Shown in pieces: positions 48,140-60,985 of a stretch of DNA of 64,000 nucleotides. The first letter of the stretch is position 1. Every line of letters begins with the position of its first letter. A program made the translations under genes and the position numbers. Source of the stretch: Candidatus Limnocylindria bacterium (GTDB lineage: Bacteria; Chloroflexota; Limnocylindria; P2-11E); assembly GCA_035708565.1 (NCBI GenBank), contig DASSSF010000058.1:2704-66703 (forward strand), read 5' to 3'. The notes under the pieces were generated by a model. It worked only from the letters and a program-made list of their open reading frames with translations, was not told where the DNA came from and searched no databases.

Positions 48140-48466
48140 GTGCTCCTGCTCGAGACACGCGGCAGGAAGAGCGGCGAGGCGCGCCGCACGCCGGTGTACT
48201 TCGTGCGCGACGGCGCCGACGTGATCGTCGTCGCGTCGAACTGGGGCCGCGACGACGATCCGGCCTGGTACCGCAACCTCATGGCGCGGCCGGACGACGC
48301 CGCGATGGTCGTCGACGGGCGGCGCACGGCGGTGCGGCCCGAGGCCGTCGCGCACGCGGACCGCGAACGCGTCTGGAAGGCCGCGGACGCCGCGTACCCG
48401 CAGTACGCGGACTACCGCAAGTGGACGCGGCGCGAGATCCCGCTCGTGCGCCTCATGCCGCGCTAG
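48140..48466 (+). CDS. Deazaflavin (F420H2)-dependent nitroreductase-family (DDN-like, PPOX-class split barrel)
   Basis: 'LLLETRGRKSGEARRTPVYFVRDGADVIVVASNWG...PAWYRNL...YPQYADYRKWTRREIPLVRL' is the DDN family pattern. The homologous N-terminus continues in-frame upstream to about 48040 with no canonical start. Confidence 0.75.
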   Translation: MLLLETRGRKSGEARRTPVYFVRDGADVIVVASNWGRDDDPAWYRNLMARPDDAAMVVDGRRTAVRPEAVAHADRERVWKAADAAYPQYADYRKWTRREIPLVRLMPR

Positions 48467-49587
48467 GCGGGTGCCCGCTCCTTCAGCGCGATCACGTTGA
48501 ATGCCGGGATCGGACGCGTGAGGCCCTTGAGCTCGAGATCCGGCAGGCGCTCACACTCGACCTGATCCTCGACCGCGGCGTGCACGCGCTGGCTGATCAC
48601 GATCTGGCCGTCCTTCGCCTGCCCCGCGAGCCGCGCGCCGAGGTTCGTGACCGCGCCGACCGCTCCGTAGTCGAAGCGGCCCTCGAAGCCGATCCGCCCG
48701 AGCGTCGCGTACCCGAGCGAGATCCCGACGCCGAAGCCGAGCGTGTAGCCCTTCTTCTTCCACGGCCGCGAGATCTCGCCGAAGCGCTCGCGCATCGCGA
48801 CGGCCATCCGAACGGCCCGGAGCGGCGCGTCCTCCTGCGTGATCGGGTCGTTGAAGAACGTCATGAACCCGTCGCCGGCGAAATGCTCGAGCGTGCCCTC
48901 GTGCCGGAACACGAGCTCGCCCATCGCCGCGTGGTACGTGCGGAGGACGGCGAGCGCCTCCTCGGGCTCGGAGGTGTCGGTGAAGGCGGTGTACCCGCGC
49001 AGGTCGCAGAACGCGACCGTGATCTCGCGCCGGTGCGGCTCGAGCGCCGACTCCGCGCCCTGCGACGTCACCATCTCCGCGATCTGCGGCGACAGGAAGT
49101 GGCGGAGCCGGCCGAGGCGCGCGAGCTCGTCGACCTGGTCGCGCACGCGTGCCTCGAGCGTCTGGTTCCAGTGCTCGAGCTCGCCGCGCTGGCGCTCGAC
49201 CGTGTCGTGGTACCGCTTCACGCGCAGGAGCGAGCGCACGCGAGTGAGGAGCTCGGTCTGGTCCCACGGCTTCGGGAGGAAGTCGTCCGCGCCGGCCTCG
49301 ACCGCCTTCTTCTTCTCCGGCAGGTCGCTCGCCGTGACCATGACGATCGGCAGGAACTGCGTCGCGGGGTCCGCGCGGACGCGGCGGCAGACCTCATAGC
49401 CGTCGATGCCGGGCAGCATGATGTCGAGGAGGACGAGGTCCGGCTTCTCGGTCAGCACCTTGAGGAGCGCGTCCTCGCCCGTCGCCGCCGTGACGACCGT
49501 GTAGCCCTGCGGCGCGAGGACGGCCTCGAGGAGCCGCAGGTTCTGCGGCACGTCGTCGACGGCGAGGATCTTCGCGGGCTCGGTCAC
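48463..49587 (-). CDS. Response regulator (receiver domain) fused to class III adenylate/guanylate cyclase
   Basis: REC 'ILAVDDVPQNLRL...LVLLDIMLPGIDG'. CHD 'ITVAFCDLRGYTAF...FAGDGFMTFF'. Confidence 0.9.
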   Translation of the reverse strand: MTEPAKILAVDDVPQNLRLLEAVLAPQGYTVVTAATGEDALLKVLTEKPDLVLLDIMLPGIDGYEVCRRVRADPATQFLPIVMVTASDLPEKKKAVEAGADDFLPKPWDQTELLTRVRSLLRVKRYHDTVERQRGELEHWNQTLEARVRDQVDELARLGRLRHFLSPQIAEMVTSQGAESALEPHRREITVAFCDLRGYTAFTDTSEPEEALAVLRTYHAAMGELVFRHEGTLEHFAGDGFMTFFNDPITQEDAPLRAVRMAVAMRERFGEISRPWKKKGYTLGFGVGISLGYATLGRIGFEGRFDYGAVGAVTNLGARLAGQAKDGQIVISQRVHAAVEDQVECERLPDLELKGLTRPIPAFNVIALKERAPA

Positions 49588-49955
49588 GCCCGCAGGTAGC
49601 CTCGCACCTGGTCGGGGAACACCTTGATGTCGATCGGCTTCGCGATGAAGCCGTCGAAGCCCGCCTTGTCGAAGCGCTCGCGGTCGTTCGCCATGACGGA
49701 GGCGGTGAGCGCGACGACGGGGATCTTCGACGTCGCGGCGTCCTTGCGGATCCGCTCGAACGCGGTGATCCCGTCGATCCCCGGCATCTGGATGTCCATG
49801 AGCACGAGGTCGGGCTGGTGCTCGCTCGCCATGCGGATCCCGGTCTCGCCGTCCGTCGCCTCGACGGTGCGGAAGCCCGCGAACCGGAGCACGTCGCGCG
49901 CGAGCTTCATGTTCTTCTCGTTGTCCTCGACGATGAGGATCAGCTCGTTCGCCAT
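49584..49955 (-). CDS. Single-domain CheY-like response regulator
   Basis: 123 aa with 'LILIVEDNEKN...LVLMDIQMPGIDG...KPI'. Confidence 0.9.
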   Translation of the reverse strand: MANELILIVEDNEKNMKLARDVLRFAGFRTVEATDGETGIRMASEHQPDLVLMDIQMPGIDGITAFERIRKDAATSKIPVVALTASVMANDRERFDKAGFDGFIAKPIDIKVFPDQVRGYLRA

Positions 49956-52900
49956 CTACCTCTTCGCGTCCCCCTTCAAGAGCGGCAGCGCGAACGTGAA
50001 GGTACTGCCCTTGCCGACCTCGCTGTCGACCCAGATACGCCCGCCGTGGAGCTCGACGAACTTCTTCGAGAGCGTGAGCCCGAGGCCGGTGCCCTCGCGC
50101 GCACGGCCCTCGCTCGTCGCGGCCTGGTGGAACTCCTCGAAGATCTTCTCGCGCTCGGCCTCCGGGATCCCGATGCCCGTGTCGTGCACGGCGACGCGGA
50201 CCTCGCCGTCGTCGCGATGTGCCTCGACCGCTACGTGGCCGCCGTCCGGCGTGAATTTCACGGCGTTCGAGAGGAGGTTGTAGACGATCTGTTTTACCTT
50301 CCGCTCGTCCGCGCGCACGCGGTCGACCTTCCCTCTGACCCTGAGGTCGACCTTGATGCCGTGCCGCGCGGCGCGCTCGCGCACCATCGTGACGCCGTTC
50401 TCGAGCGCCTCCTTGAGCGAGAACTCGCCGACTTCGAGCTCCATGCGGCCGGCCTCGACCTTCGAGAGGTCAAGGATGTCGTTGATGAGCGAGAGGAGGT
50501 GCCGACCCGACGAGAGGATGTCCTCGAGGTACTCCTTCTGCCGCGCGTTGGGCTCGCCGAACATGCCCTGCGCGAGGACCTCGCTGAAGCCGATGATCGC
50601 GTTGAGCGGCGTGCGCAGCTCATGGCTCATGTTCGCGAGGAACTCGCTCTTGTGCTGGTTCGCGAGCTCGAGCTGGCGCGACTTCTCCTGCGTCTCGCTG
50701 AAGAGGCGCGCGTTCTCGATTGCGATGACCGCCTGGTCCGCGAAGGTCTCGACGAGCCCGATCTGCTCACGGCTGAACGGCCGCGGCTCCGTCCGCCACA
50801 TCGCGATGACGCCGAGCGCCTTGCCCTCGTGCAGCAACGGCACGGAGAGGAGCGTCCGGAAGCCCCCCAGCTTCTGCGCGTCCAGGTACGTGTAGGTCTC
50901 GTCGGTGAGGACGTCGTGGATGTGGACCGTGCGACGCCCGATGAACGCGCGGCCGGTGGACGACCCCGCGTCGTCCGCCGCGATCGGATGCGCTCGCTGC
51001 CACTCGTGCATCACCTCGGCCTTCGTGCCGATGGCGGCGACCATCCGCAGGACCGGCCCCTCGGCGCGGTAGATGAAGCCGTTCTCCGCGCCGGCCAGGC
51101 GCGTCGCGTGCGCCACGACCGTGTTGAGCACGCCCGCGAGGTCTAGGCCCGAGCTCGTGATCTGGTTCAGGACCTCGGCGGTCGCGGTCTGCCGCGCGAG
51201 GGCGTCCTTCGTCTCGTTGAAGAGGCGTACGTTCTCCATCGCGATGGCGGCCTGATCCGCGAACGTCTCGACCAGGCGCATCTCCCGCTCCGTGAACGGA
51301 CGCACGTCGGTGTGGAAGACCATGAGCGTGCCGATCGCGCGGCCCTCGCGCATGAGTGGCACTGCGAGCCGTGTCAGCGGACCGTCCTGGGGCAGCTCCG
51401 GCCGCGTGCGCACATCCGCCACGTACTGCCGTCGCCCTGTGCGGATGCTGAGCGCGGCCAGCGTGGTGCCGCCGAGGCGCGCGTAGCCGGGGCGCGGGCT
51501 CCCGTCGGGCAACGCGGGGGCGAAGAGCGGGCCGTTGCCGGCGAGCCAGCGGATCTCATCCCCGTCGACCCGTCCGAGCTGCGCCGAGTCCGCGCCGCTG
51601 AGCGCTACCGCACGCTCGACGATCGTCTTGAGGACCGTGTCGAGGTCGAATGCCGAGCGGCTGATCGATGCGAGCACATCGGCGACCGCCGTCTGCTGCT
51701 CCAGCGCCTCTCTCGTCTCATTGAACAGGCGCACGTTCTCCATCGCGATCGCGGCCTGGTCGGCGAAGGTCGTCACGATGGCGACGTCGGCGTCCGTGAA
51801 CGGCTGCACGTGCGTTCGCCAGAGCGACAGCACGCCGACGACGCGGCCATCTCTCAGCAGCGGCACGCCGAGCATCGACCGCAGGTTGCCGACGCGCTGG
51901 TGCTCGCGCAGCGCGTAATCGGGATCGGCGCTCGCGTCGTCGATGCGGACCGCGCGACCCTCGGCCGTGACGCGTCCGGTCAGGCTGCCGCGGTCGTTCG
52001 GGGCGATCGGATGCTCCTCGTTCAGCCGGCGCAGCTCCTCCGGGATCTCGTACCCCGCGGCGATGCGCAGGAAGCCGTCGTCGTCCACGCGGTAGATCAC
52101 GCCATGCGCGGCGCGGCACAGCCGCGCCGCGCGCTCGATCACCGTGTTGAGGAGCGTCGGGAGATCGAAGGCGGAGCGTCCGATGGCGGCGAGCACCTCG
52201 CTGACGGCGGTCTGCTGCTCCAGCGCGTCCCTCGTCTCGTTGAAGAGGCGCACGTTCTCGATCGCGATGACCGCTTGATCGGCGAACGTCCGCAGGAGGT
52301 CGAGCTGCCGGTCGGCGAAGGGACCTGGTACGGAGCGCCGGAGCAGGATCGCGCCGATCGCCTTCCCCTCACGCATGAGCGGCATCGCGGCGGCGGCGCG
52401 ATGACCCGTTCGCCTCGCGAACTCGAGGGTGATCGGATAGTCGGCCGCGGCTGACGGTTCCTGGATGTCGGGGACGTGGACGAGCGCTCCGTCGACGATG
52501 GCGCGTCCCGTCATCGACGTGCGGTCCACGGGCCAGACCGCCTCGCGCTCCGCGTAGACGGGCCCCTCGTGTGCGACGGCGCGGAAGTGCCGGCCTTCGA
52601 CGAGGAGGACCGCCGCGTCCTCGGCGCCACAGAAGCGCACCGCGTTCCGGGCGATCGCGTCGAGCACGGGCTGGTCGCTCGTGGGCGAGCCCGCGATGGC
52701 GCGGAGGACCTCACCGGTCGCGGTCTGTCGCTCGAGCGCCTCTCTCGTCTCGTTGAAGAGCCGCACGTTCTCGATCGCGATCGCGGCCTGGTCCGCGAAC
52801 GTGCGGAGCAGCCCGATCTGCTTCTCGGTGAACGGGCGTACCTCCGTCCGGCGGAGCGTGATCGCGCCGAGCGGAACGCCTTCCCGGAGGAGCGGCGCGG

Positions 52901-55865
52901 CGAGGACCGTCCGCAGGCCGAGCTCTCGCGCGCCGCGCACGCCGGTCGGCCACTCCTCCTCGCTCTCGGCGGCCATGTCGTGCACGTGGATGACCTCCCG
53001 GTCGACGATCGCCCGGCCACGGACGGAGCCGCGGTCGATCTTCCACGGCGGGAGCGACCGCGCGATCGGGCCGTGCCGGGCGACCTGCTCGAAGAGGCCG
53101 TCGGCCCGGATGAGCCCGACGCCACAGTCCTCTGCCGCGCAGTAGCGGGCCGCGCTCCGCGCGATCGCGTCGAGCACGGGCTGGATGTCGCCGGGGGAGC
53201 TCGAGATGACCTGGAGGATCTCGCTGATCGCGGTCTGCTGCTCAAGCGACTCCTTCGTCTCGTTGAACAGCCGTACGTTCTCGATCGCGATCACCGCCTG
53301 GTCGGCGAACGTCCGGGCGAGGTCGATCTGCCGCTCGGTGAAGGGGCGCACCTCGGCCCGCCGCATGACGATCGCACCGACGGCCGTGCCCTGGCGGAGC
53401 AGCGGCGCGGCGAGCGTCGTGCGATGCCCGAACTTCGTCGCGAGCTCCTGGGTGCGCGGGTACGTGTCGTCCGCGAGCGGATCCTCGACCTGGAGCACGC
53501 GTGACTCGAGGATCGCCCGCCCGGCGATCGCTCCGGGCTCGATCGCGACGACCGTCGGGCGGGCGCTGTCGTGGCCGGAGACGATGGTCCCCGCGTGCGC
53601 TCGGGACACGAGCCGATCACCCTCGCGCAGCAGCACGATCACGTCCTCCGCGGCGCAGAACCGCTGCGCGCTCTCCGCGATCGCGTCGAGGACCGGCTGG
53701 AGCTCCGTCGGCGACGTGGACATGACGCGGAGGATCTCGGCGGTCGCGGTCTGCCGCTCGAGCGCCTCCTTCGTCTCGTTGAAGAGCCGGACGTTCTCGA
53801 TCGCGATCGCGGCCTGGGCCGCGAGCTGCTCGACGAGCCCCACCTCGCTCTCCCTGAACCCGCCGGGGCGAGCTCGGCCGAGGCGGATGGCGCCGATCGG
53901 CTGGCCGTCCTGGAAGACAGGCACCGAGAGCCGACTGCGGCTCCACGTCTCGTGCTCGGGCTGCGCCCCTTCCATGAGCGACGCGTCCGTGGCGAAGTCC
54001 GGGGTCTGGTGCGATCGGCCGTCGAGGATCGCCCGCCCGGGCAGCGTGCCGAAGTCCAGGCCGAACCTCCAGCCGAGCGGGACCCCTTCCGGCGGCGGCG
54101 GCCAGTTGCCGGCGCGCGCCTCGCTCAGGATCTCTTGACCGGCCCTGCGGTAGAACGCCGCCTGCTCCGCGCCGCACAGCCGCATCGCCGCTTCGAGGAT
54201 CACGGTGAGGACGGGCGCGACATCGCCCCGGGCCGCGGCGATCGCACTGTGGATCTCCGCCGTGGCAGTCTGCCGCTCGAGGGCGGCCTTGGTCTCGTTG
54301 AACAGACGCACGTTCTCGATCGCGATCACCGCCTGGTCGGCGAACGTCCGGGCCAGGTCGATCTGCCGCTCGGTGAAGTGGCGCACCTCGGCCCGCCGCA
54401 TGACGATCGCGCCGACCGCGACACCTTGGCGCAGCAAGGGGGCCGCGAGCGTGGTGCGGTGGCCGTACCGCTCCGCGAGCTCGCGGGAGCGCGGGTACGA
54501 GTCGTCGGCGAGCGGGTCCTCCACCTGAAGGACCTGCGACTCGAGGATGGCGCGTCCGGCGATGGCTCCGGGCTCGATCGTGACGACAGTGGGGCGGGCG
54601 CTGTCGAGGCTTGTGACGATGGTCCCCGCGTGCGCTCGGGACACGAGCTGATCGCCCTCGCGCAGCAGCACGACCACGTCCTCCGCGGCGCAGAACCGCT
54701 GCGCGCTCTGGGCGATCGCGTCGAGGACCGGCTGGAGCTCCGTCGGCGACGTGGACATGACGCGGAGGATCTCCGCGGTCGCGGTCTGCCGATCGAGCGC
54801 TTCGGCCAGCTCACGCCGGCGACGCACGGTCCGCTCGCCGAGCCTACCCAGCGCGACGCTGCCGGCGAGCAGCGCGGCGAGCAGCGCGACGCGCAGTGCG
54901 CGATCGACGGCGAGGGTGCGTTGGAGCTCCGCTCGTTCCGCCGCGGGATCGATCGCGGCGATCACGCGCCATCCCGTATCGCCGACCGGTGCGGCGGCGG
55001 CGATGCGAGGCGAGCGTGCGATCGGGTCGTCGCGCTCGACGGCGCCGGCAGCGGTGAGCGCTGGATCGGCCGTCAGATCCGCGCCGCTGATCGGTGGCTC
55101 GAGCGCTCTCGCGGCGAGGATCCCAGCGCCGTCCGTTAGGTACAGGTCGTCGGGCGCGGATGCGTGGGGGCGAAGCAGCTCGGCGAGCGGTGCGTTGGTC
55201 ACTTCGACGACGAACGCGCCGGCGAACGGCGTGAGCCCACCCGGGATCGGCGCGACCATCTGGATCGCGGGTCCGGCGCTCGGGCCGACCGATCGTTCTA
55301 CGTACCCGTACTCAGGCCTGCCAGACGATGGCCCGCCTGCCGTCGCCAGGCGTTTCGCGCGGAGGAATGTGGGCAGGTCCGTCACGGCGGGCCCCGGGAT
55401 CCGGCCTGCGCCCGTACCTCCTGCACCCTGTCCCCCAGGGCCAGATCCAACGCCTGCGCCGACGCCGACCGGCCGACCGTCGGCGTCCACGAACCACATG
55501 CTCGAGCCGCCAGCGTCCAGTCGCGCCCCGCCGACCGGACGGAGCGCGCGCAGTGTTGTCTCGAACGCGCGCTCGAGAGTCGCCGTGTCGCGCGCGGTCA
55601 CCGCCGCCCGGACCACGGGATCGTTCGCGGTAACGAGCGCGATGTTTCCGATCTCGCGGAGCCAGGCGTTCGCGACACCCGCGCCGCGGCGTGCCGACTG
55701 CTCCGCTCGCTCCCGCAGCGACGCCTCGAGACGCTCCTTCGCGTCGGCAGCCGCCACCTCGTCCAGTACGGCGATCGGCAGCGCGATGACGAGCGCGGTG
55801 AGCAGTGGCACGTACCACCACCGCGCGAACAGGCGCTCGACGACAGGCGCGAGCTCCCGGCGCAA
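49956..55865 (-). CDS. Giant sensor histidine kinase (1969 aa): TM, extracytoplasmic sensor domain, TM, eight tandem GAF domains, HisKA, HATPase_c
   Basis: Eight 'ENVRLFNET(K/R)...LE(R/Q)QTA(T/V)...' linker-GAF units. H-box 'FLANMSHELRTPLNAI'. G-boxes 'HDTGIGI', 'GTGLGLTL'. Confidence 0.9.
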   Translation of the reverse strand: MRRELAPVVERLFARWWYVPLLTALVIALPIAVLDEVAAADAKERLEASLRERAEQSARRGAGVANAWLREIGNIALVTANDPVVRAAVTARDTATLERAFETTLRALRPVGGARLDAGGSSMWFVDADGRPVGVGAGVGSGPGGQGAGGTGAGRIPGPAVTDLPTFLRAKRLATAGGPSSGRPEYGYVERSVGPSAGPAIQMVAPIPGGLTPFAGAFVVEVTNAPLAELLRPHASAPDDLYLTDGAGILAARALEPPISGADLTADPALTAAGAVERDDPIARSPRIAAAAPVGDTGWRVIAAIDPAAERAELQRTLAVDRALRVALLAALLAGSVALGRLGERTVRRRRELAEALDRQTATAEILRVMSTSPTELQPVLDAIAQSAQRFCAAEDVVVLLREGDQLVSRAHAGTIVTSLDSARPTVVTIEPGAIAGRAILESQVLQVEDPLADDSYPRSRELAERYGHRTTLAAPLLRQGVAVGAIVMRRAEVRHFTERQIDLARTFADQAVIAIENVRLFNETKAALERQTATAEIHSAIAAARGDVAPVLTVILEAAMRLCGAEQAAFYRRAGQEILSEARAGNWPPPPEGVPLGWRFGLDFGTLPGRAILDGRSHQTPDFATDASLMEGAQPEHETWSRSRLSVPVFQDGQPIGAIRLGRARPGGFRESEVGLVEQLAAQAAIAIENVRLFNETKEALERQTATAEILRVMSTSPTELQPVLDAIAESAQRFCAAEDVIVLLREGDRLVSRAHAGTIVSGHDSARPTVVAIEPGAIAGRAILESRVLQVEDPLADDTYPRTQELATKFGHRTTLAAPLLRQGTAVGAIVMRRAEVRPFTERQIDLARTFADQAVIAIENVRLFNETKESLEQQTAISEILQVISSSPGDIQPVLDAIARSAARYCAAEDCGVGLIRADGLFEQVARHGPIARSLPPWKIDRGSVRGRAIVDREVIHVHDMAAESEEEWPTGVRGARELGLRTVLAAPLLREGVPLGAITLRRTEVRPFTEKQIGLLRTFADQAAIAIENVRLFNETREALERQTATGEVLRAIAGSPTSDQPVLDAIARNAVRFCGAEDAAVLLVEGRHFRAVAHEGPVYAEREAVWPVDRTSMTGRAIVDGALVHVPDIQEPSAAADYPITLEFARRTGHRAAAAMPLMREGKAIGAILLRRSVPGPFADRQLDLLRTFADQAVIAIENVRLFNETRDALEQQTAVSEVLAAIGRSAFDLPTLLNTVIERAARLCRAAHGVIYRVDDDGFLRIAAGYEIPEELRRLNEEHPIAPNDRGSLTGRVTAEGRAVRIDDASADPDYALREHQRVGNLRSMLGVPLLRDGRVVGVLSLWRTHVQPFTDADVAIVTTFADQAAIAMENVRLFNETREALEQQTAVADVLASISRSAFDLDTVLKTIVERAVALSGADSAQLGRVDGDEIRWLAGNGPLFAPALPDGSPRPGYARLGGTTLAALSIRTGRRQYVADVRTRPELPQDGPLTRLAVPLMREGRAIGTLMVFHTDVRPFTEREMRLVETFADQAAIAMENVRLFNETKDALARQTATAEVLNQITSSGLDLAGVLNTVVAHATRLAGAENGFIYRAEGPVLRMVAAIGTKAEVMHEWQRAHPIAADDAGSSTGRAFIGRRTVHIHDVLTDETYTYLDAQKLGGFRTLLSVPLLHEGKALGVIAMWRTEPRPFSREQIGLVETFADQAVIAIENARLFSETQEKSRQLELANQHKSEFLANMSHELRTPLNAIIGFSEVLAQGMFGEPNARQKEYLEDILSSGRHLLSLINDILDLSKVEAGRMELEVGEFSLKEALENGVTMVRERAARHGIKVDLRVRGKVDRVRADERKVKQIVYNLLSNAVKFTPDGGHVAVEAHRDDGEVRVAVHDTGIGIPEAEREKIFEEFHQAATSEGRAREGTGLGLTLSKKFVELHGGRIWVDSEVGKGSTFTFALPLLKGDAKR
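53290..53830. repeat. Direct repeat copy B (GAF3-coding) of an internal duplication within the kinase gene. About 90% nt identity to 54320..54830.
   Basis: Compared by eye: for example, 53641..53800 is nearly identical to 54670..54830. Confidence 0.7.
54320..54830. repeat. Direct repeat copy A (GAF1-coding), partner of 53290..53830
   Basis: The protein segments 'ERQTATAEILRVMSTSPTELQPVLDAIA(Q/E)SAQRFCAAEDV...' are about 90% identical between GAF1 and GAF3. Confidence 0.7.
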
Positions 55866-55985: not shown

Positions 55986-58127
55986 ATGGCCGAGCCGGAG
56001 GGGATCTGGGAGACGCTGCGGCAGCGGCTCGACTACGCCTCGTTCGTCCCGCGCCTCGTCCCCGATCTCGTGCGCTCCGACCTGCGCACGCGTGCGGGCG
56101 AGCCCTACGTCGTCATCAAGAACCCCCACGGCGACAAGGGCGCGGGCACGTACCTCCGCCTCGAGGCCGCGGACGCGGCGCTCCTCGAGCTGATGGACGG
56201 GAAGCGCACGATGCAGGAGATCCTCGTCGAGCACCTCGAGCGGACCGGCTCGTTCGCGCTCGACCGCCTCGCGCGGCTGACGAGCGCCCTGCGCATGAAC
56301 GGCTTCTTCGGCGAGGAGCCGCCGCTCGTCTACGAGAAGCTCCGCGCGCGCCGCCGTCCGCTCCTCGACCGGCTCTCTCTGCTCATGCGCCGGCTGATCC
56401 TCTGGGACGTCGCGCGGTGGGAGAACGCCGAGGCCGTGGTCGACGTCGTGTACCGCCTCGGCGGCCGGCTCTTCTTCACGCGGCTCGGCGCCCTCGTCGC
56501 GGTCGCCTTCAGCGCGTACGGCCTGTGGCTCTGGGCGCAGGAGGTCCGCGCGCCGCGGCACGACCTCGTGAGCCAGGACGGCTCGTACACGCTCGGGATC
56601 CTCATCCTCGTCGTGCTCCAGGTGATCTCGATCTCCGTGCACGAGGCGGGGCACGCGCTCGCGATCCGCCACTACGGCCGGCGCGTGCGTCGGCTCGGCT
56701 TCGCGATCTACTACCTCTTCCCGTGCTTCTACGTGGACGCGACGGACATGACGCTCGCGTCGCGCCGCGAGCGCGTGGTCGTGTCGCTCGCCGGTCCCGT
56801 CGGGGGGCTGCTCACGGCGGCGGTCTGCGCGGTCGTGACCGCCACCGCCGGCGACTCGCTCGCGGCCTCCCTCGCGTTCAAGGCGGCGAGCCTGTTCGTC
56901 TTCCAGTTCTTCCTGAACCTGCTGCCGATCCTCGACCTCGACGGCTACAACATCCTCGTCGACGCGCTCGACATCCCGCTGCTGCGCCAGCGGGCGGTCG
57001 GCTTCGTCCGCGGGCGCGCGATCCGCAAGATCCGCCGCCGCGAGAAGTGGACGCGCGGGGAGGTCGGCCTCGCGGCGTTCGGCGGCTCGGCGATCCTCAT
57101 CTCCTTCCTCATGCTCTTCATCGCGCTCTGGCTGTGGCAGACGCGAGTGCAGGCCGCGACCAGCGAGCTCGTCGCGATCGGGCCCGTGGGACTCCTCGGC
57201 CTCGCCCTCATCGTCCTCGTCTTCGTCGGTCCGCTGCTCGTGGCGCTCGCGGGCCGCGTGCTCGGGCTCGGCCGCGTCGCGACGAGGTCGTTCACGTCGC
57301 GCCGCCGGAAGGCGAAGCAGCTCGAGATGGAGGAGCGGATCACGACGCTCGGCCGCATCCGCTTCCTCAACGGCCTCCCGCGCACCGCGCTCGCCGCCAT
57401 CGCGTCGCACCTCGAGGTGCACGACGTGGAGGCCGGCGAGGCGGTCTTCAGCGCGGGCGACGTCGGCGACCGCTTCTACATCGTCCGCTCGGGACGCGTC
57501 GAGGCGGTCTCGCCGGAGGGGCAGGTGCTCAACGTGATCATCCCGGGCGAAGGCTTCGGCGAGCTCGCGCTCCTCGACCGCGCGACGCGGAGCGCGACCG
57601 TGCGCGCGACGGAGCCGACGGTGCTGTGGTCGCTCGACCGCGGCCACTTCGAGCGCTGGGTCGCGGAGCGCTACGAGATCGCCGCGCGGATCCGCGCGTC
57701 GCGCGAGGAGCGCGACCGGCTCGTGCGCCTGCCCTTCTTCAGCGGGCTCTCGCGGCAGCAGCTCGAGCGGATCCTCCCGCGCATGCGCACCGTCCGAGCG
57801 AGCGCGGGCGAGGAGGTCGTGCGCGCCGGCGAGCCCGGCGACAGGTACTTCGTCATCCATACGGGGACGGCGCGCGTGACGCTCCCCGACGGCACGCACG
57901 TGCGCGACCTCGGACCGGGCGACGGCTTCGGCGAGCTCGCGCTCCTCTTCGGCGGCCCGCGGACGGCGACCGTGACCGCCACGAGCGACATGACCCTCGG
58001 CGCCCTCGGCCGTCGCGACTTCGCCGAGCTCGTGAAGCAGTCGGGCGAGACCGCCGGCACGTTCCGCCGGCGCACCGCGCACTATGTCGGCGCCGGCATC
58101 GGTGCCACGGTGGCGAGGGGGTCGTAG
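55986..58127 (+). CDS. Multi-domain membrane protease: N-terminal PqqD/RRE-like domain, site-2-protease (M50) domain with HEXXH 'HEAGH', and two cyclic-nucleotide-binding domains (713 aa)
   Basis: 'YLRLEAADAALLELMDGKRTMQEILVEHL' matches the PqqD pattern (xLNxTAxxIWxLLDGxRTxxEI). TM helices surround 'VHEAGHALAIRHYG' and a later 'DLDGYN' (LDG). Two CNB domains 'FGELALL...RSATVRA' and 'FGELALLFGGPRTATVTA'. Confidence 0.85.
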   Translation: MAEPEGIWETLRQRLDYASFVPRLVPDLVRSDLRTRAGEPYVVIKNPHGDKGAGTYLRLEAADAALLELMDGKRTMQEILVEHLERTGSFALDRLARLTSALRMNGFFGEEPPLVYEKLRARRRPLLDRLSLLMRRLILWDVARWENAEAVVDVVYRLGGRLFFTRLGALVAVAFSAYGLWLWAQEVRAPRHDLVSQDGSYTLGILILVVLQVISISVHEAGHALAIRHYGRRVRRLGFAIYYLFPCFYVDATDMTLASRRERVVVSLAGPVGGLLTAAVCAVVTATAGDSLAASLAFKAASLFVFQFFLNLLPILDLDGYNILVDALDIPLLRQRAVGFVRGRAIRKIRRREKWTRGEVGLAAFGGSAILISFLMLFIALWLWQTRVQAATSELVAIGPVGLLGLALIVLVFVGPLLVALAGRVLGLGRVATRSFTSRRRKAKQLEMEERITTLGRIRFLNGLPRTALAAIASHLEVHDVEAGEAVFSAGDVGDRFYIVRSGRVEAVSPEGQVLNVIIPGEGFGELALLDRATRSATVRATEPTVLWSLDRGHFERWVAERYEIAARIRASREERDRLVRLPFFSGLSRQQLERILPRMRTVRASAGEEVVRAGEPGDRYFVIHTGTARVTLPDGTHVRDLGPGDGFGELALLFGGPRTATVTATSDMTLGALGRRDFAELVKQSGETAGTFRRRTAHYVGAGIGATVARGS

Positions 58128-58131
58128 GTAG

Positions 58132-58347
58132 ATGGACTGTTTCATCTGCGAGAAGACGGCGGTCGGCGCGTGCCGCTTCTGCGGCCGCGGCGCCTGCCGC
58201 GAGCACGCCCGGACGCACCCGTTCCTCCTGGACGTCTTCCGGGGAGACCGGCACAAGGTCCTGCGGGCGCTCGTCGTCGAGGACGCGATCCACTGTGGCG
58301 TCTGCAAGCCGAGGGGCGAGCCCGTGGAGCTTCCTGAGCTCGAGTAG
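58132..58347 (+). CDS. DUF2180-like Cys-rich zinc-ribbon small protein (71 aa)
   Basis: 'CFICEKT...CRFCGRGACREH...HCGVCKP' gives 8 Cys. It lies 4 nt after the protease stop, so it is translationally coupled. Confidence 0.65.
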   Translation: MDCFICEKTAVGACRFCGRGACREHARTHPFLLDVFRGDRHKVLRALVVEDAIHCGVCKPRGEPVELPELE

Positions 58348-58472
58348 GCCGTCTCTGTAACGCCGGCTTCCCTCGGAGGTCGGCGCGATGACGCTCGGGC
58401 GTGCCCGATCCCATCGACCGCCGCCGCGGACGCGCGCAGGGTCCGCCCTAAGACGAGCATGGAGGTAGGGCG

Positions 58473-58832
58473 ATGAGCGACAAGATGGACGTGAGCGGGA
58501 GCGTGGCGACGGGCAAGGCGCTCGACGACGTCCGGCTCGGGGCGGCCATCCCCGCCGGGGACCCCACCGCCGTGTCGGCGGCGGAGGCGTGGCCGGAGCA
58601 CGCGCTGGCTCGGCTGAACGAGGCGCAGGGGGCGGCGGAGCTCGATGCCTCTGCGGCGGCCCAGTGGCCGGAGCACGCGATCACGCGCGTCTCGGCGGCG
58701 GAGGCCGGGTCCCGCGAGGGCGACGCGTACCTGACGGCGGACGAGGCCGGCCGCGACGCGGGCACGGAGTCCCTGGCCGACGACCTCGTGATCGTCGACG
58801 TGCCGGTGTGCGAGCAGTCACTCGAGCTCTAG
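58473..58832 (+). CDS. Small acidic hypothetical protein (119 aa) with an internal 'WPEHA' duplication and a C-terminal 'GDAYLTADEAGRD' motif
   Basis: GGAGG SD 8 nt upstream. Followed by an intrinsic terminator. Confidence 0.55.
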   Translation: MSDKMDVSGSVATGKALDDVRLGAAIPAGDPTAVSAAEAWPEHALARLNEAQGAAELDASAAAQWPEHAITRVSAAEAGSREGDAYLTADEAGRDAGTESLADDLVIVDVPVCEQSLEL

Positions 58833-58844
58833 GAACGGGCCCGA

Positions 58845-58883
58845 GGGAGCGGTCGAGCGGAAGACGCGGACCGCTCCCTTTTT
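58845..58883 (+). terminator. Rho-independent terminator (stem gggagcggtc/gaccgctccc, 14-nt loop, TTTTT)
   Basis: Perfect 10-bp GC-rich inverted repeat plus a T5 run 12 nt after the stop of 58473..58832. Confidence 0.75.
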
Positions 58884-59043
58884 CGTCGCCGGCGGCGTAC
58901 AGTTCGCGCTTCGCAAGGGCAGGGGAGGGAAACGTTCGAAGGATCACAGTCCAGGCGTTCGCCGGCCGAACGTTGCCGCGCGCGTCCGGGAGGACGCTTC
59001 CCCCCAACAGCCCGGTAGGGCGAAAGGAACGGTTCAGGGAGAT

Positions 59044-60249
59044 ATGAGCAAGCAGGCACTAGGGCAGGTCGTGCAGCGCGCGATCAGTGACGCCGCCTTC
59101 CGGCGTCAGCTCCAGAGCGACCCGACGGGCGCGCTCAAGGGCTTCGACCTCACGGCGGACGAGCGCGCGGCGCTCCGCGCCGGCGACGCGTCCAAGCTCT
59201 CCTCGCTCGGCGTCGACCAGCGCATGAGCAAGGCGTTCGCGCTCGGCGAGGCGAGCCAGGTCTCGCGGGCCCCGAGCGCCGACACGCGTCTCGCCTCGGC
59301 GACCGACGGGGGCGGATCCGACAACGCGGAGGCAGGGATCTGGGGCGACCAGTCCGGCGCGCGCGCGGCCTCGGCCTCGGACGCGACGAGCGACTCCCAG
59401 GCGCGCCTCGCGGACATCGACGCGAAGATCAGCGGCATCCCGAGCGGCACCGAGAACTGGCGCGCGGCCGACGTCGAGGGCTCGCCGGAAGCGGCGCGCT
59501 CCGCGATGGACGCCGCGGCGGGCAGCGACTCCCAGGCGCGCCTCGCGGACATCGACGCGAAGATCAGCGGCACCCCGAGCGGCACCGAGAACTGGCGCGC
59601 GGCCGACGTCGAGGGCTCGCCGGAAGCGGCGCGCTCCGCGATGGACGCCGCGGGCGGCAGCGACTCGCAGGCGCGTCTCGCGGACATCGACGCGCGCTTC
59701 AACACGGCCGACGCCGCGGACGGCAGCGACTCGAGCGCCGGCACGGCGTACGTGACGGCGGACGAGGCCGGCCGCGACGCGACCGGCATCGCGGGCGGGC
59801 GTCCGCTCTTCGCGACCTCGAGCGCCGAGGCCCAGGACGGCTCCGGCGGCAGCTTCTCGATCTCGGCCGACGAGCAGGGCCGCGGCGACGCGACGGCGGT
59901 CGCGGGCAGCGACTCGAACGCGACCTCGGCGCAGATCACGGCGGACGAGTTCGGCCGCAGGGCCGCGGCTTCCGCCGGCGACAGCGACGCCGCGGGCGGC
60001 ACGGCGTACATCACGGCCGACGAGGCCGGTCGCGACTCCAGCGCGCTCCGCTCGAGCGACGTGGCTGCCCGCGAGGGCGACGCGTTCCTCACGGCGGACG
60101 AGGCCGGCCGCGACTACGTCCCCGAGGGCGGTTCCCTCTCGCGCAACATGGCGACGGACTCGGCGGACATCCAGCGCGAGATGCTCGAGGGCGGCAGCGG
60201 TGGCGGCTCGCCCGAGCACTCGAGCGACGGACCCGAGATCCAGCCCTAG
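59044..60249 (+). CDS. Acidic repeat protein (401 aa) with an NHLP/Nif11-type leader-like N-terminal domain, 45-aa tandem repeats and recurring 'A[YF][LVI]TADEAGRD' motifs
   Basis: N-terminal 'ALGQVVQRAISDAAFRRQLQSDPTGALKGFDLTADE' matches the nitrile-hydratase-leader-peptide pattern (A..D..F(K/R)..L..DP..AL). 'aggga' SD. No signal peptide. Confidence 0.7.
   Translation: MSKQALGQVVQRAISDAAFRRQLQSDPTGALKGFDLTADERAALRAGDASKLSSLGVDQRMSKAFALGEASQVSRAPSADTRLASATDGGGSDNAEAGIWGDQSGARAASASDATSDSQARLADIDAKISGIPSGTENWRAADVEGSPEAARSAMDAAAGSDSQARLADIDAKISGTPSGTENWRAADVEGSPEAARSAMDAAGGSDSQARLADIDARFNTADAADGSDSSAGTAYVTADEAGRDATGIAGGRPLFATSSAEAQDGSGGSFSISADEQGRGDATAVAGSDSNATSAQITADEFGRRAAASAGDSDAAGGTAYITADEAGRDSSALRSSDVAAREGDAFLTADEAGRDYVPEGGSLSRNMATDSADIQREMLEGGSGGGSPEHSSDGPEIQP
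59392..59700 (+). repeat. 135-bp tandem repeat x about 2.3 (copies 59392..59526 and 59527..59661 differ at about 3 nt; a diverged partial third copy follows) inside CDS 59044..60249
   Basis: Read directly from the sequence. It encodes '..DSQARLADIDAKISG(I/T)PSGTENWRAADVEGSPEAARSAMDAA(A/G)GS'. Confidence 0.85.
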
Positions 60250-60271
60250 ACGCGGCATCCTCTCTGTCCCG

Positions 60272-60305
60272 GAAGCGCGGCCCCCACCCCCGGGGGCCGC
60301 GCTTC
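60272..60305. terminator. Bidirectional terminator hairpin (14-bp stem gaagcgcggccccc/gggggccgcgcttc) between convergent genes, followed by a T-rich tract
   Basis: Perfect inverted repeat 22 nt after the stop of 59044..60249 and immediately after the Crp stop. Confidence 0.7.
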
Positions 60306-60310
60306 TTCCT

Positions 60311-60985
60311 TTAGTAGCGGATGTCCTTCTGGAGGGCCGCCGGGTCGAGGATCTCGATGTGGCGGCGGCCGATGCGGATCGCGTTCCGTTTTTCGAGGTC
60401 GGCGAGCGCCCGGTTCACGGACACGCGCGTCGCGCCGACGAACGCGGCGAGGTCCTCCTGCGTCATGTCGAGCTGGCGCTTCCCGCCCGAGAGCTCCGAG
60501 ATGTCGAGGAGGCACTTCGCGACGCGGCCGCCCAGGTCGAGGAAGACGAGGTCCTCGACGCGGCCGCTGGACCGGCGAACCGTGCGCGCGAGGTGGGCGA
60601 GCATCTCGCGCATCGCGGCCGGGTAGCGCTCGAGCGCGGCGAGGAAGTCCTGCCGGCCGAGCGTCAGCACCTCGGTCTCGGTGATGGCCGTGACGGTCGC
60701 CGACCGCGGCGCGTCGTCGAACAGCGCGAGGTCGCCGAAGATGTCGCCGCCGCGCTGGATGCCGACGACGACCTCGCGACCGTTCTCATCGGGGAGCGAG
60801 ATCTTCACCGTGCCGGCGACGATCACGAAGAGGTGCGCCGCGGGGTCGTCGCGGTGGAAGATGACCTCGTCGCGAGCGAAGCGCCGCGGCCGCATGCGTC
60901 CGGCGAGCGCGACGCGCTCGTGCGGAGGCAGGGCGGCGAAGAGCGGCGTGATCGAGAGGTGCTCGGCGAGCGCGTTCGTGTCCAT
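60311..60985 (-). CDS. Crp/Fnr family transcriptional regulator (cNMP-binding + C-terminal HTH)
   Basis: 224 aa with 'GDIFGDLALF...RSATVTA' and HTH 'MTQEDLAAFVGATRVSVNRAL'. Confidence 0.9.
   Translation of the reverse strand: MDTNALAEHLSITPLFAALPPHERVALAGRMRPRRFARDEVIFHRDDPAAHLFVIVAGTVKISLPDENGREVVVGIQRGGDIFGDLALFDDAPRSATVTAITETEVLTLGRQDFLAALERYPAAMREMLAHLARTVRRSSGRVEDLVFLDLGGRVAKCLLDISELSGGKRQLDMTQEDLAAFVGATRVSVNRALADLEKRNAIRIGRRHIEILDPAALQKDIRY

Follow-up and report, generated by a model that had tools for sequence, protein, structure and literature searches.

The 64,000-nucleotide stretch analysed here (the window; positions 2,704 to 66,703 of contig DASSSF010000058.1, GenBank assembly GCA_035708565.1) comes from a metagenome-assembled genome (MAG) of Candidatus Limnocylindria. 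At 59044-60249 it encodes a protein of 401 amino acids (aa) that is identical to an NCBI protein encoded on a 71-kb contig of a Candidatus Limnocylindria MAG and annotated as "Os1348 family NHLP clan protein". The protein comprises a small N-terminal domain followed by a long tail, and the tail harbors an array of 135-bp (45-aa) units that is a genuine, very young in-frame tandem duplication in a hypervariable region. The gene and its parts are:

59044 to 60249, forward strand: long-tailed Os1348-family (NHLP-clan) protein, 401 aa (third-codon-position G+C content, NF038399, NCBI identity).
59044 to 59256, forward strand: N-terminal helical Os1348/NHLP-like (LigA-like) domain, residues 1-71 (NF038399, PDB 6LK7, AlphaFold).
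59257 to 60246, forward strand: acidic, Cys-free, low-complexity tail of 330 aa that holds the 135-nt repeat (composition, AlphaFold).
59389 to 59694, forward strand: tandem repeat array, period 135 nt (45 aa), 2.27 copies (Tandem Repeats Finder and copy comparison).
59714 to 60121, forward strand: older diverged repeats with A-[FY]-[ILV]-T-A-D-E-A-G-R-D, three good and two degenerate copies (repeat searches and motif comparison).

Tandem Repeats Finder resolved the repeat as a single array at 59389-59694, with a period of 135, 2.3 copies, 97% matches, 0% indels and a score of 577. Its units start at 59389, 59524 and 59659. An earlier note on this DNA, which had already proposed a 135-bp repeat of about 2.3 copies, used a slightly shifted register, with copy 1 at 59392-59526, copy 2 at 59527-59661 and a partial copy 3 from 59662. 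Direct comparison of the two full copies in the latter register gives exactly three differences over 135 nt (97.8% identity), and these are the same bases that the note had listed with its estimate of about three substitutions (atc/acc and gcggcgggc/gcgggcggc). The first, T/C at 59438, turns ATC into ACC and thus Ile into Thr; the other two, CG/GC at 59519-59520, turn GCG into GGC and thus Ala into Gly. All three are non-synonymous. A match of 132 of 135 positions is not due to chance, since about 1e-57 such matches are expected in the whole window (binomial estimate, window base composition). The partial third copy spans 36 nt at 59659-59694, SDSQARLADIDA, and carries two mismatches, both synonymous (TCC/TCG and CGC/CGT). 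Similarity ends there: in the earlier note's register, 67 of the following 135 nt are mismatched. The 36-nt block SDSQARLADIDA is therefore found at the start of each 135-nt unit and again after the last one.

The array lies in frame 0 of the open reading frame (ORF) 59044-60249, so that each unit equals 45 codons, in agreement with the in-frame 45-aa repeat read earlier. The G+C content at third codon positions (GC3) of this ORF is 0.96 in a window of 72.5% G+C, which identifies the forward frame as the coding one. The long minus-strand ORFs 59059-60258 and 59106-60092, which also cover the repeat, are shadow frames of the kind usual in high-GC DNA and were rejected. A Shine-Dalgarno-like GGGAG sequence precedes the ATG.

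The N-terminal domain matches the NF038399 model with 62.3 bits (E 3.4e-17, cut-off 40), residues 4-62 aligning with model positions 1-63 of 63. NF038399 is a model of type 'domain', and membership is not excluded by a length of 401 aa, compared with 85 aa for the founder and 65-78 aa for short members found beside the same type of protease (loci L015 and L016). The only solved relative, Os1348 (PDB 6LK7), aligns with residues 3-60 (E 7e-4). In an AlphaFold model built on a 30-sequence alignment, the domain forms five helices (3-25, 27-30, 38-46, 49-54 and 57-71) with a predicted local distance difference test score (pLDDT) of 73-89, and an invariant D-Q-R-x-S-K motif closes it. The Pfam family PF14407 (Frankia_peptide), whose source is reportedly Iyer et al. 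2009, matches with 30.2 bits (E 5.4e-7), under its gathering threshold of 48 bits, and nonetheless appears in the database's precomputed list for the protein. The NHLP leader model TIGR03793 stays well below its cut-off (12.8 against 50.9 bits), and TIGR04509 is also weak. The repeat had been placed inside an NHLP-leader-like gene. The gene type stands, given the NF038399 match, but the repeat occupies residues 116-217, in the tail and outside the leader-like domain.

Computed over residues 76-401, the tail has a net charge of -35, is made up of Ala, Ser, Gly and Asp to about 60%, and contains no Cys and no hydrophobic segment. It is predicted to be disordered: pLDDT is below 50 over most of its length, with weak helices over SQARLADIDAKI and SPEAARSAMDAA. 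The tail consists of degenerate modules that mostly start with G-S-D-S. Three are of the RLADIDA type and make up the young repeat, several others carry A[FY][ILV]TADEAGRD, and Tandem Repeats Finder reports a further period-39 array at 59936-60113. Each 45-aa unit holds an RLAxhDxx[FI] helix, an (E/D)(N/D)W(R/K) motif and the sequence EGSPEA, all of which recur in the family. The duplication thus changes the length of the tail and the number of these short motifs, and does not appear to add a folded domain. A modular or variable product, as the earlier note suggested, is plausible from the sequence.

We searched for relatives of the protein and of its domain. The 120 best homologues are 222-420 aa long, derive almost all from soil metagenomes and Chloroflexota MAGs, and all have the conserved N-terminal domain followed by a tail almost devoid of Cys. 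Nearly all of them have near-perfect internal tandem repeats of their own, with periods of 11-74 aa and unrelated sequences. At least seven homologue pairs are 98.5-100% identical save for one clean indel that equals their own repeat period: 60 aa in P0002/P0003 (99.7% identity), 46 aa in P0044/P0075 and in P0051/P0062 (both 100%), 22 aa in P0060/P0112 (100%), 25 aa in P0060/P0086, 20 aa in P0043/P0116 and 23 aa in P0009/P0014. The proposal that the modules vary in copy number is thus supported for the family and extends to this locus by analogy. Loci whose neighboring proteases are 90-92% identical have N-terminal domains that are 97% identical and tails that are 72-80% identical and differ in length; in three such loci the tails measure 335, 358 and 332 aa, and one has an extra 26-aa unit. 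At 75% protease identity the domain is still 83% identical and the tail has fallen to the compositional baseline. Overall, the domain is 57-97% identical where the tails are 13-80% identical, a conserved N-terminus joined to a hypervariable C-terminal part. The tails of the family evolve largely by gain and loss of repeat units while the 70-aa N-terminal domain stays conserved.

With the N-terminal domain as query, a library of 1.84 billion representatives yielded 533 clusters at 50% identity (E ≤ 1e-3). Among the best 150 of these 533, lengths range from 83 to 539 aa, all but four are at least 114 aa long, and almost all are long-tailed with the domain at the N-terminus. In four proteins (P0271, P0273, P0274 and P0348) the query matches two separate stretches, and two-domain proteins may thus exist.

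The two full copies are 97.8% identical, whereas the tails of orthologues can no longer be aligned once the neighboring protease has diverged to 75% identity. The duplication is therefore recent, as had been suspected from the copies alone, and its units are bounded by the 36-nt block. Direct repeats of this kind at both ends and in the middle of an array are the expected footprint of unequal recombination or slippage. Most likely, the array arose, and can change again, by unequal recombination or replication slippage between the copies of SDSQARLADIDA. A phase-variation switch was rejected, because a change in the number of in-frame 135-bp units cannot turn the gene off.

Could the array instead be a product of short-read metagenome assembly, through collapse or expansion of a repeat or by the joining of strain variants head to tail? 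The contig belongs to a MAG, the unit is near read length, many of the family comparisons are also drawn from metagenome assemblies, and the assembled copy number of near-perfect 135-bp repeats in MAG contigs is not trustworthy without spanning reads. Yet the three differences limit any uninterrupted identical run to about 80 bases at most, so that large-k assemblers can place the copies, and the array is exactly in frame with unique flanks. The same type of repeat, with clean unit-sized indels, is moreover seen in many independent assemblies from different sources. We regard an artefact as very improbable.

A more substantial alternative is neutral drift of a linker. The tail would then be an unconstrained disordered spacer between the N-terminal domain and the semi-conserved last 60-70 residues, and the repeat would have no functional meaning. 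The predicted disorder and low complexity of the tail agree with this, as do the wholly different repeat sequences of the sub-clades and tail lengths that run from about 80 to more than 450 aa. Widely shared tail features are furthermore confined to the vicinity of the C-terminus: the motif A[FY][ILV][TD][AE][DS]E occurs in 82 of 117 tails, its last copy 21-72 aa (median 55) from the end, and is followed by short recurring endings such as GPNISS, DGQLTP and GPEIQP. However, the 45-aa unit is not arbitrary. EGSPEA (29 of 117 tails) and (D/E)(D/N)W(K/R), both part of the unit, are each found in about a quarter of the tails, and together with the RLAxhD helix they recur in distant members. Both changes in the older 36-nt partial copy are synonymous, a hint of constraint on SDSQARLADIDA, and a GC3 of 0.96 shows that the tail has retained an open frame with normal coding character. 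Drift is, on this evidence, possible but rather unlikely.

The 401-aa gene belongs to a conserved cassette, whose other members and associated features in the window are:

55986 to 58127, forward strand: 713-aa intramembrane M50-family metalloprotease with two cytoplasmic cyclic-nucleotide-binding domains (Pfam/NCBIfam matches, motifs).
58132 to 58347, forward strand: zinc-finger protein, Zn71, 71 aa (conserved ligands, AlphaFold).
58473 to 58832, forward strand: orf119, a 119-aa acidic tail-like ORF without the Os1348 domain (GC3 0.97, motif, synteny).
58845 to 58885, forward strand: terminator-like hairpin GGGAGCGGTC ... GACCGCTCCC followed by TTTTT, directly 3' of orf119 (-37.2 kcal/mol, z -2.2).
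58933 to 58948, forward strand: candidate Crp/Fnr-type site CGTTCGAAGGATCACA (nGTnA-N6-TCACA; spacer alignment).
60311 to 60985, reverse strand: Crp/Fnr-family regulator with a cyclic-nucleotide-binding domain and a helix-turn-helix, convergent with the Os1348-type gene (domain matches).

The cassette is found in many Limnocylindria MAGs. The order protease, 71-aa zinc finger, Os1348-type gene is constant in 12 Limnocylindria-type loci (L001-L006 and L008-L013), which were fetched via homologues of the 401-aa protein or via the protease, and the convergent Crp gene ends the cassette wherever the contig reaches that far. Two further loci, L017 and L018, show it too, each only in part. Genes beyond the cassette vary between loci. 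Luciferase-like monooxygenases beside the Crp gene recur in L001, L003/L004 and L017 and are absent from L008, L011 and L012; we attribute them to synteny and do not count them as part of the system.

The protease has about six transmembrane segments, an HEAGH motif at residue 219 and NLLPILDLD(G) at residue 311. It belongs to the M50 family (PF02163, 34.4 bits, cut-off 27.2), and across the 12 loci it measures 700-730 aa with two cyclic-nucleotide-binding domains. Its best named relatives are the daptide protease NF041824 and YydH/LiaK NF058609, with scores of 139.3 bits (equivalog cut-off 300) and 76 bits (cut-off 225) that mark it as a relative and not a member. It shares with them HExxH and NxxPxxxLDG in a polytopic membrane domain and an adjacent gene for a leader-like substrate, but differs by its two C-terminal cyclic-nucleotide-binding domains and its conserved zinc-finger partner. 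PADLOC matches to the protease arise only through the cyclic-nucleotide-binding domains, as in Pycsar effectors, and a defence system was rejected on that ground. The protease gene also contains, in its second cyclic-nucleotide-binding region, an imperfect tandem repeat on the forward strand (57579-57624, period 21, 2 copies, 84% matches), which is probably insignificant.

Zn71 carries eight Cys/His ligands that are invariant or nearly so and form a cross-brace with B-box-like spacing, and its AlphaFold model has a pLDDT of 88.8. Comparison of this model with PDB structures gave no significant neighbor, the best being a cross-brace zinc finger with an E of 1.4. The protein is 75-82% identical among loci and is more conserved than the protease. 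The exact Zn71 of the window is absent from the protein collection (best match 89%), although the 401-aa protein is present; the annotation deposited for the MAG may lack a call for its gene.

Between Zn71 and the 401-aa gene lies orf119, in which the AYLTADEAGRD motif occurs once and a 39-aa stretch is repeated (AEAWPEHALARL / AAQWPEHAITRV). In L017 and L018, the closest syntenic relatives of the window (identities of 73% for Crp, 88% for a nitrilase-family gene and 68% for the protease), the same slot is held by the first of two complete tandem Os1348-type paralogues of 261-275 and 397-420 aa. The ORF may be what is left of a truncated first paralogue, or else a tail protein without a leader. 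The hairpin that follows it has a perfect G+C-rich stem of 10 bp and a long loop, because of which a consensus terminator scan missed it. Such a hairpin could uncouple transcription of orf119 from that of the 401-aa gene. An Rfam scan of 58300-60400 (E ≤ 1) gave no match, and an RNA element was rejected as an explanation.

In 10 of 11 loci (the window, L001, L003, L005, L006 and L008-L012), the start codon of the Os1348-type gene is preceded, at a distance of 92-111 nt, by an nGTnA-N6-TCACA element that agrees with 7-9 of 10 consensus positions. The element looks like a Crp-family site, and its position would fit control by the adjacent Crp gene. Divergent from the cassette, at 48463-55865 on the reverse strand, the window encodes a sensor histidine kinase of 1969 aa that contains eight GAF domains, together with a single-domain response regulator and an adenylate/guanylate cyclase of the response-regulator type. 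This cluster could be a local source of cyclic nucleotide for the protease and Crp. The kinase and the cyclase are not conserved beside the other loci and were rejected as parts of the cassette.

Searches with the zinc-finger protein reached other lineages, in which the protease/zinc-finger pair adjoins short (65-78 aa) Os1348-family genes with only 4-15 residues after the domain. On the metagenome contig L016 (3430-8994), two such genes of 69 and 78 aa (63-68 bits) share the locus with the protease and the zinc finger. Also encoded there are an M16 peptidase, an extracytoplasmic function (ECF) sigma factor and a 142-aa protein whose Os1348-like domain (34.8 bits) is C-terminal. In a Dehalococcoidia MAG, Os1348-like genes of 65 aa are found near the pair. 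Because the pair is accompanied by short Os1348-type genes in these lineages, the long tail rich in repeats is particular to the Limnocylindria-type branch within a broader protease/zinc-finger/Os1348-type association. In L014 (4066-4767, reverse strand), from a Frankiales MAG, a homologous M50 protease with cyclic-nucleotide-binding domains, the zinc finger and an ECF sigma factor adjoin three paralogous small genes of 66, 76 and 80 aa with NHNETTR / TTRGW repeats. These have no Os1348 domain and no match among NCBIfam models, and they may represent a different class of substrate for the pair. The sigma factors of L014 and L016 stand in the place of the Crp of the Limnocylindria cassette.

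One of the closest known relatives is Os1348 of Pseudomonas sp. Os17, an 85-aa helical protein with a link to antibiotic activity that forms a stable dimer in the crystal (Takeuchi et al. 2020, PMC7726476). Os1348 is the founder of NF038399; it shares with the window protein the homologous N-terminal helical domain of about 60-70 residues, and a gene for an HExxH metalloprotease adjoins both. Os1348 has almost no tail, whereas the window protein has 330 acidic, repeat-rich residues. The Pseudomonas cluster encodes a GNAT acetyltransferase, a gluzincin-type HExxH protein and a SagB-type dehydrogenase in place of the M50 protease with cyclic-nucleotide-binding domains, the zinc finger and Crp. 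Precursors with NHLP/Nif11-type leaders (Haft et al. 2010, PMC2887384) and the LigA-like group (PMC12353581) have the same fold class and clan as the N-terminal domain, and NHLP/Nif11 precursors likewise combine a conserved N-terminus with a variable C-terminus. The window protein differs from them in that it scores below the NHLP model cut-offs, has no Gly-Gly/C39 transporter or modifying enzyme beside it, and has a Cys-free variable part ten times the usual core length.

These likenesses raise the question of whether the protein is a classical multi-core precursor of a ribosomally synthesised and post-translationally modified peptide (RiPP), with the N-terminal domain as a true leader and the repeats as cores that are modified by enzymes encoded elsewhere, released and exported. 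The NHLP clan membership of the domain, its junction to a hypervariable C-terminal part and a co-encoded M50 protease closest to daptide and epipeptide maturation proteases all speak for such a precursor. Cyanobactins and microviridins have multi-core precursors, and a strain-variable Cys-Xaa-Xaa repeat bacteriocin of Bacillus is reported to be a RiPP precursor of variable repeat number (Haft 2009, Biol Direct 4:15, as cited in PMC2887384). Repeat-variable RiPP precursors share with the present family in-frame tandem repeats after a leader-like region and a copy number that differs between close relatives. They have, however, short defined units and a neighboring modifying enzyme, whereas the units here are 11-74 aa long and specific to sub-clades. 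In the cassette of the 14 Limnocylindria-type loci (the 12 above with L017 and L018), we found no modifying enzyme (radical-SAM, YcaO, lanthipeptide, ATP-grasp or other) and no C39 or ATP-binding cassette exporter. The near lack of Cys in the tails, the lack of a single core-like sequence common to the units across the family, and the few residues after the domain in the short members beside the same type of protease argue further against modified cores. A classical multi-core RiPP precursor thus seems to us quite unlikely.

We favor, with moderate confidence, the explanation that the protein with the young duplication docks through its N-terminal domain and offers its tail as a variable substrate to a protease gated by cyclic nucleotide. 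The N-terminal domain would act as a leader-like docking domain towards the protease, possibly via the zinc-finger protein. The protease, on binding cyclic nucleotide, would process the tail as its variable substrate or cargo, and transcription of the Os1348-type gene would be controlled by the neighboring Crp through the conserved upstream site.

Several observations weigh against this explanation. It is gene neighborhood and domain content that suggest substrate cleavage, tail release and cyclic-nucleotide control. A Cys-free tail of about 330 aa with neither modifying enzyme nor exporter does not look like any characterised RiPP core. Os1348 crystallised as a small, stably dimeric protein (PMC7726476), so the N-terminal domain may be a functional domain and not a disposable leader. 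Three differences between the copies are too few to judge selection, and the copy number of the array was read from a short-read MAG assembly. Copy-number change was not observed at this exact locus, close relatives of which were not found in the collections searched. In genome and metagenome contig collections queried with the protease, the best protease identity was 68%, and in the protein collection the closest matches to the full protein, after the identical source protein, had 41-45% identity. With only the repeat region as query, this collection returned no matches, not even the source protein, a result that is uninformative.

A bolder proposal goes beyond gated processing of a docked substrate. 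The cassette would be an undescribed modification-free system of peptide release or signalling in soil Chloroflexota, in which the gated M50 protease, aided by the zinc finger, would recognise the NHLP-like docking domain and cut the tail into several unmodified peptides. The 135-bp duplication would then be a freshly added copy, and the number and sequence of the peptides would evolve fast by gain and loss of repeats. We consider this proposal unlikely. If true, it would define a class of leader-dependent multi-copy peptide precursors without tailoring enzymes.

Searches of the literature found no paper on Franean1_4349, none linking M50 proteases with cyclic-nucleotide-binding domains or with NHLP, and nothing specific on tandem repeats in NHLP-type precursors. 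The architecture of a long-tailed Os1348 protein with a cyclic-nucleotide-sensing intramembrane protease was likewise not found described in the searchable literature. The object is a long-tailed, repeat-expanding version of the known Os1348 family in an uncharacterised but conserved cyclic AMP-linked protease cassette. Limnocylindria are abundant, mostly uncultured soil Chloroflexota. The family name implies a small protein of the RiPP leader type, and here the domain is fused to a repeat-expanding disordered tail of 150-450 aa. If the tail is only a linker, the array is an ordinary young duplication in a low-complexity region. If the tail is processed, the family would offer a tractable case of repeat slippage diversifying secreted or signalling peptides, and the cassette would represent a new, cyclic AMP-gated form of leader-dependent proteolysis.

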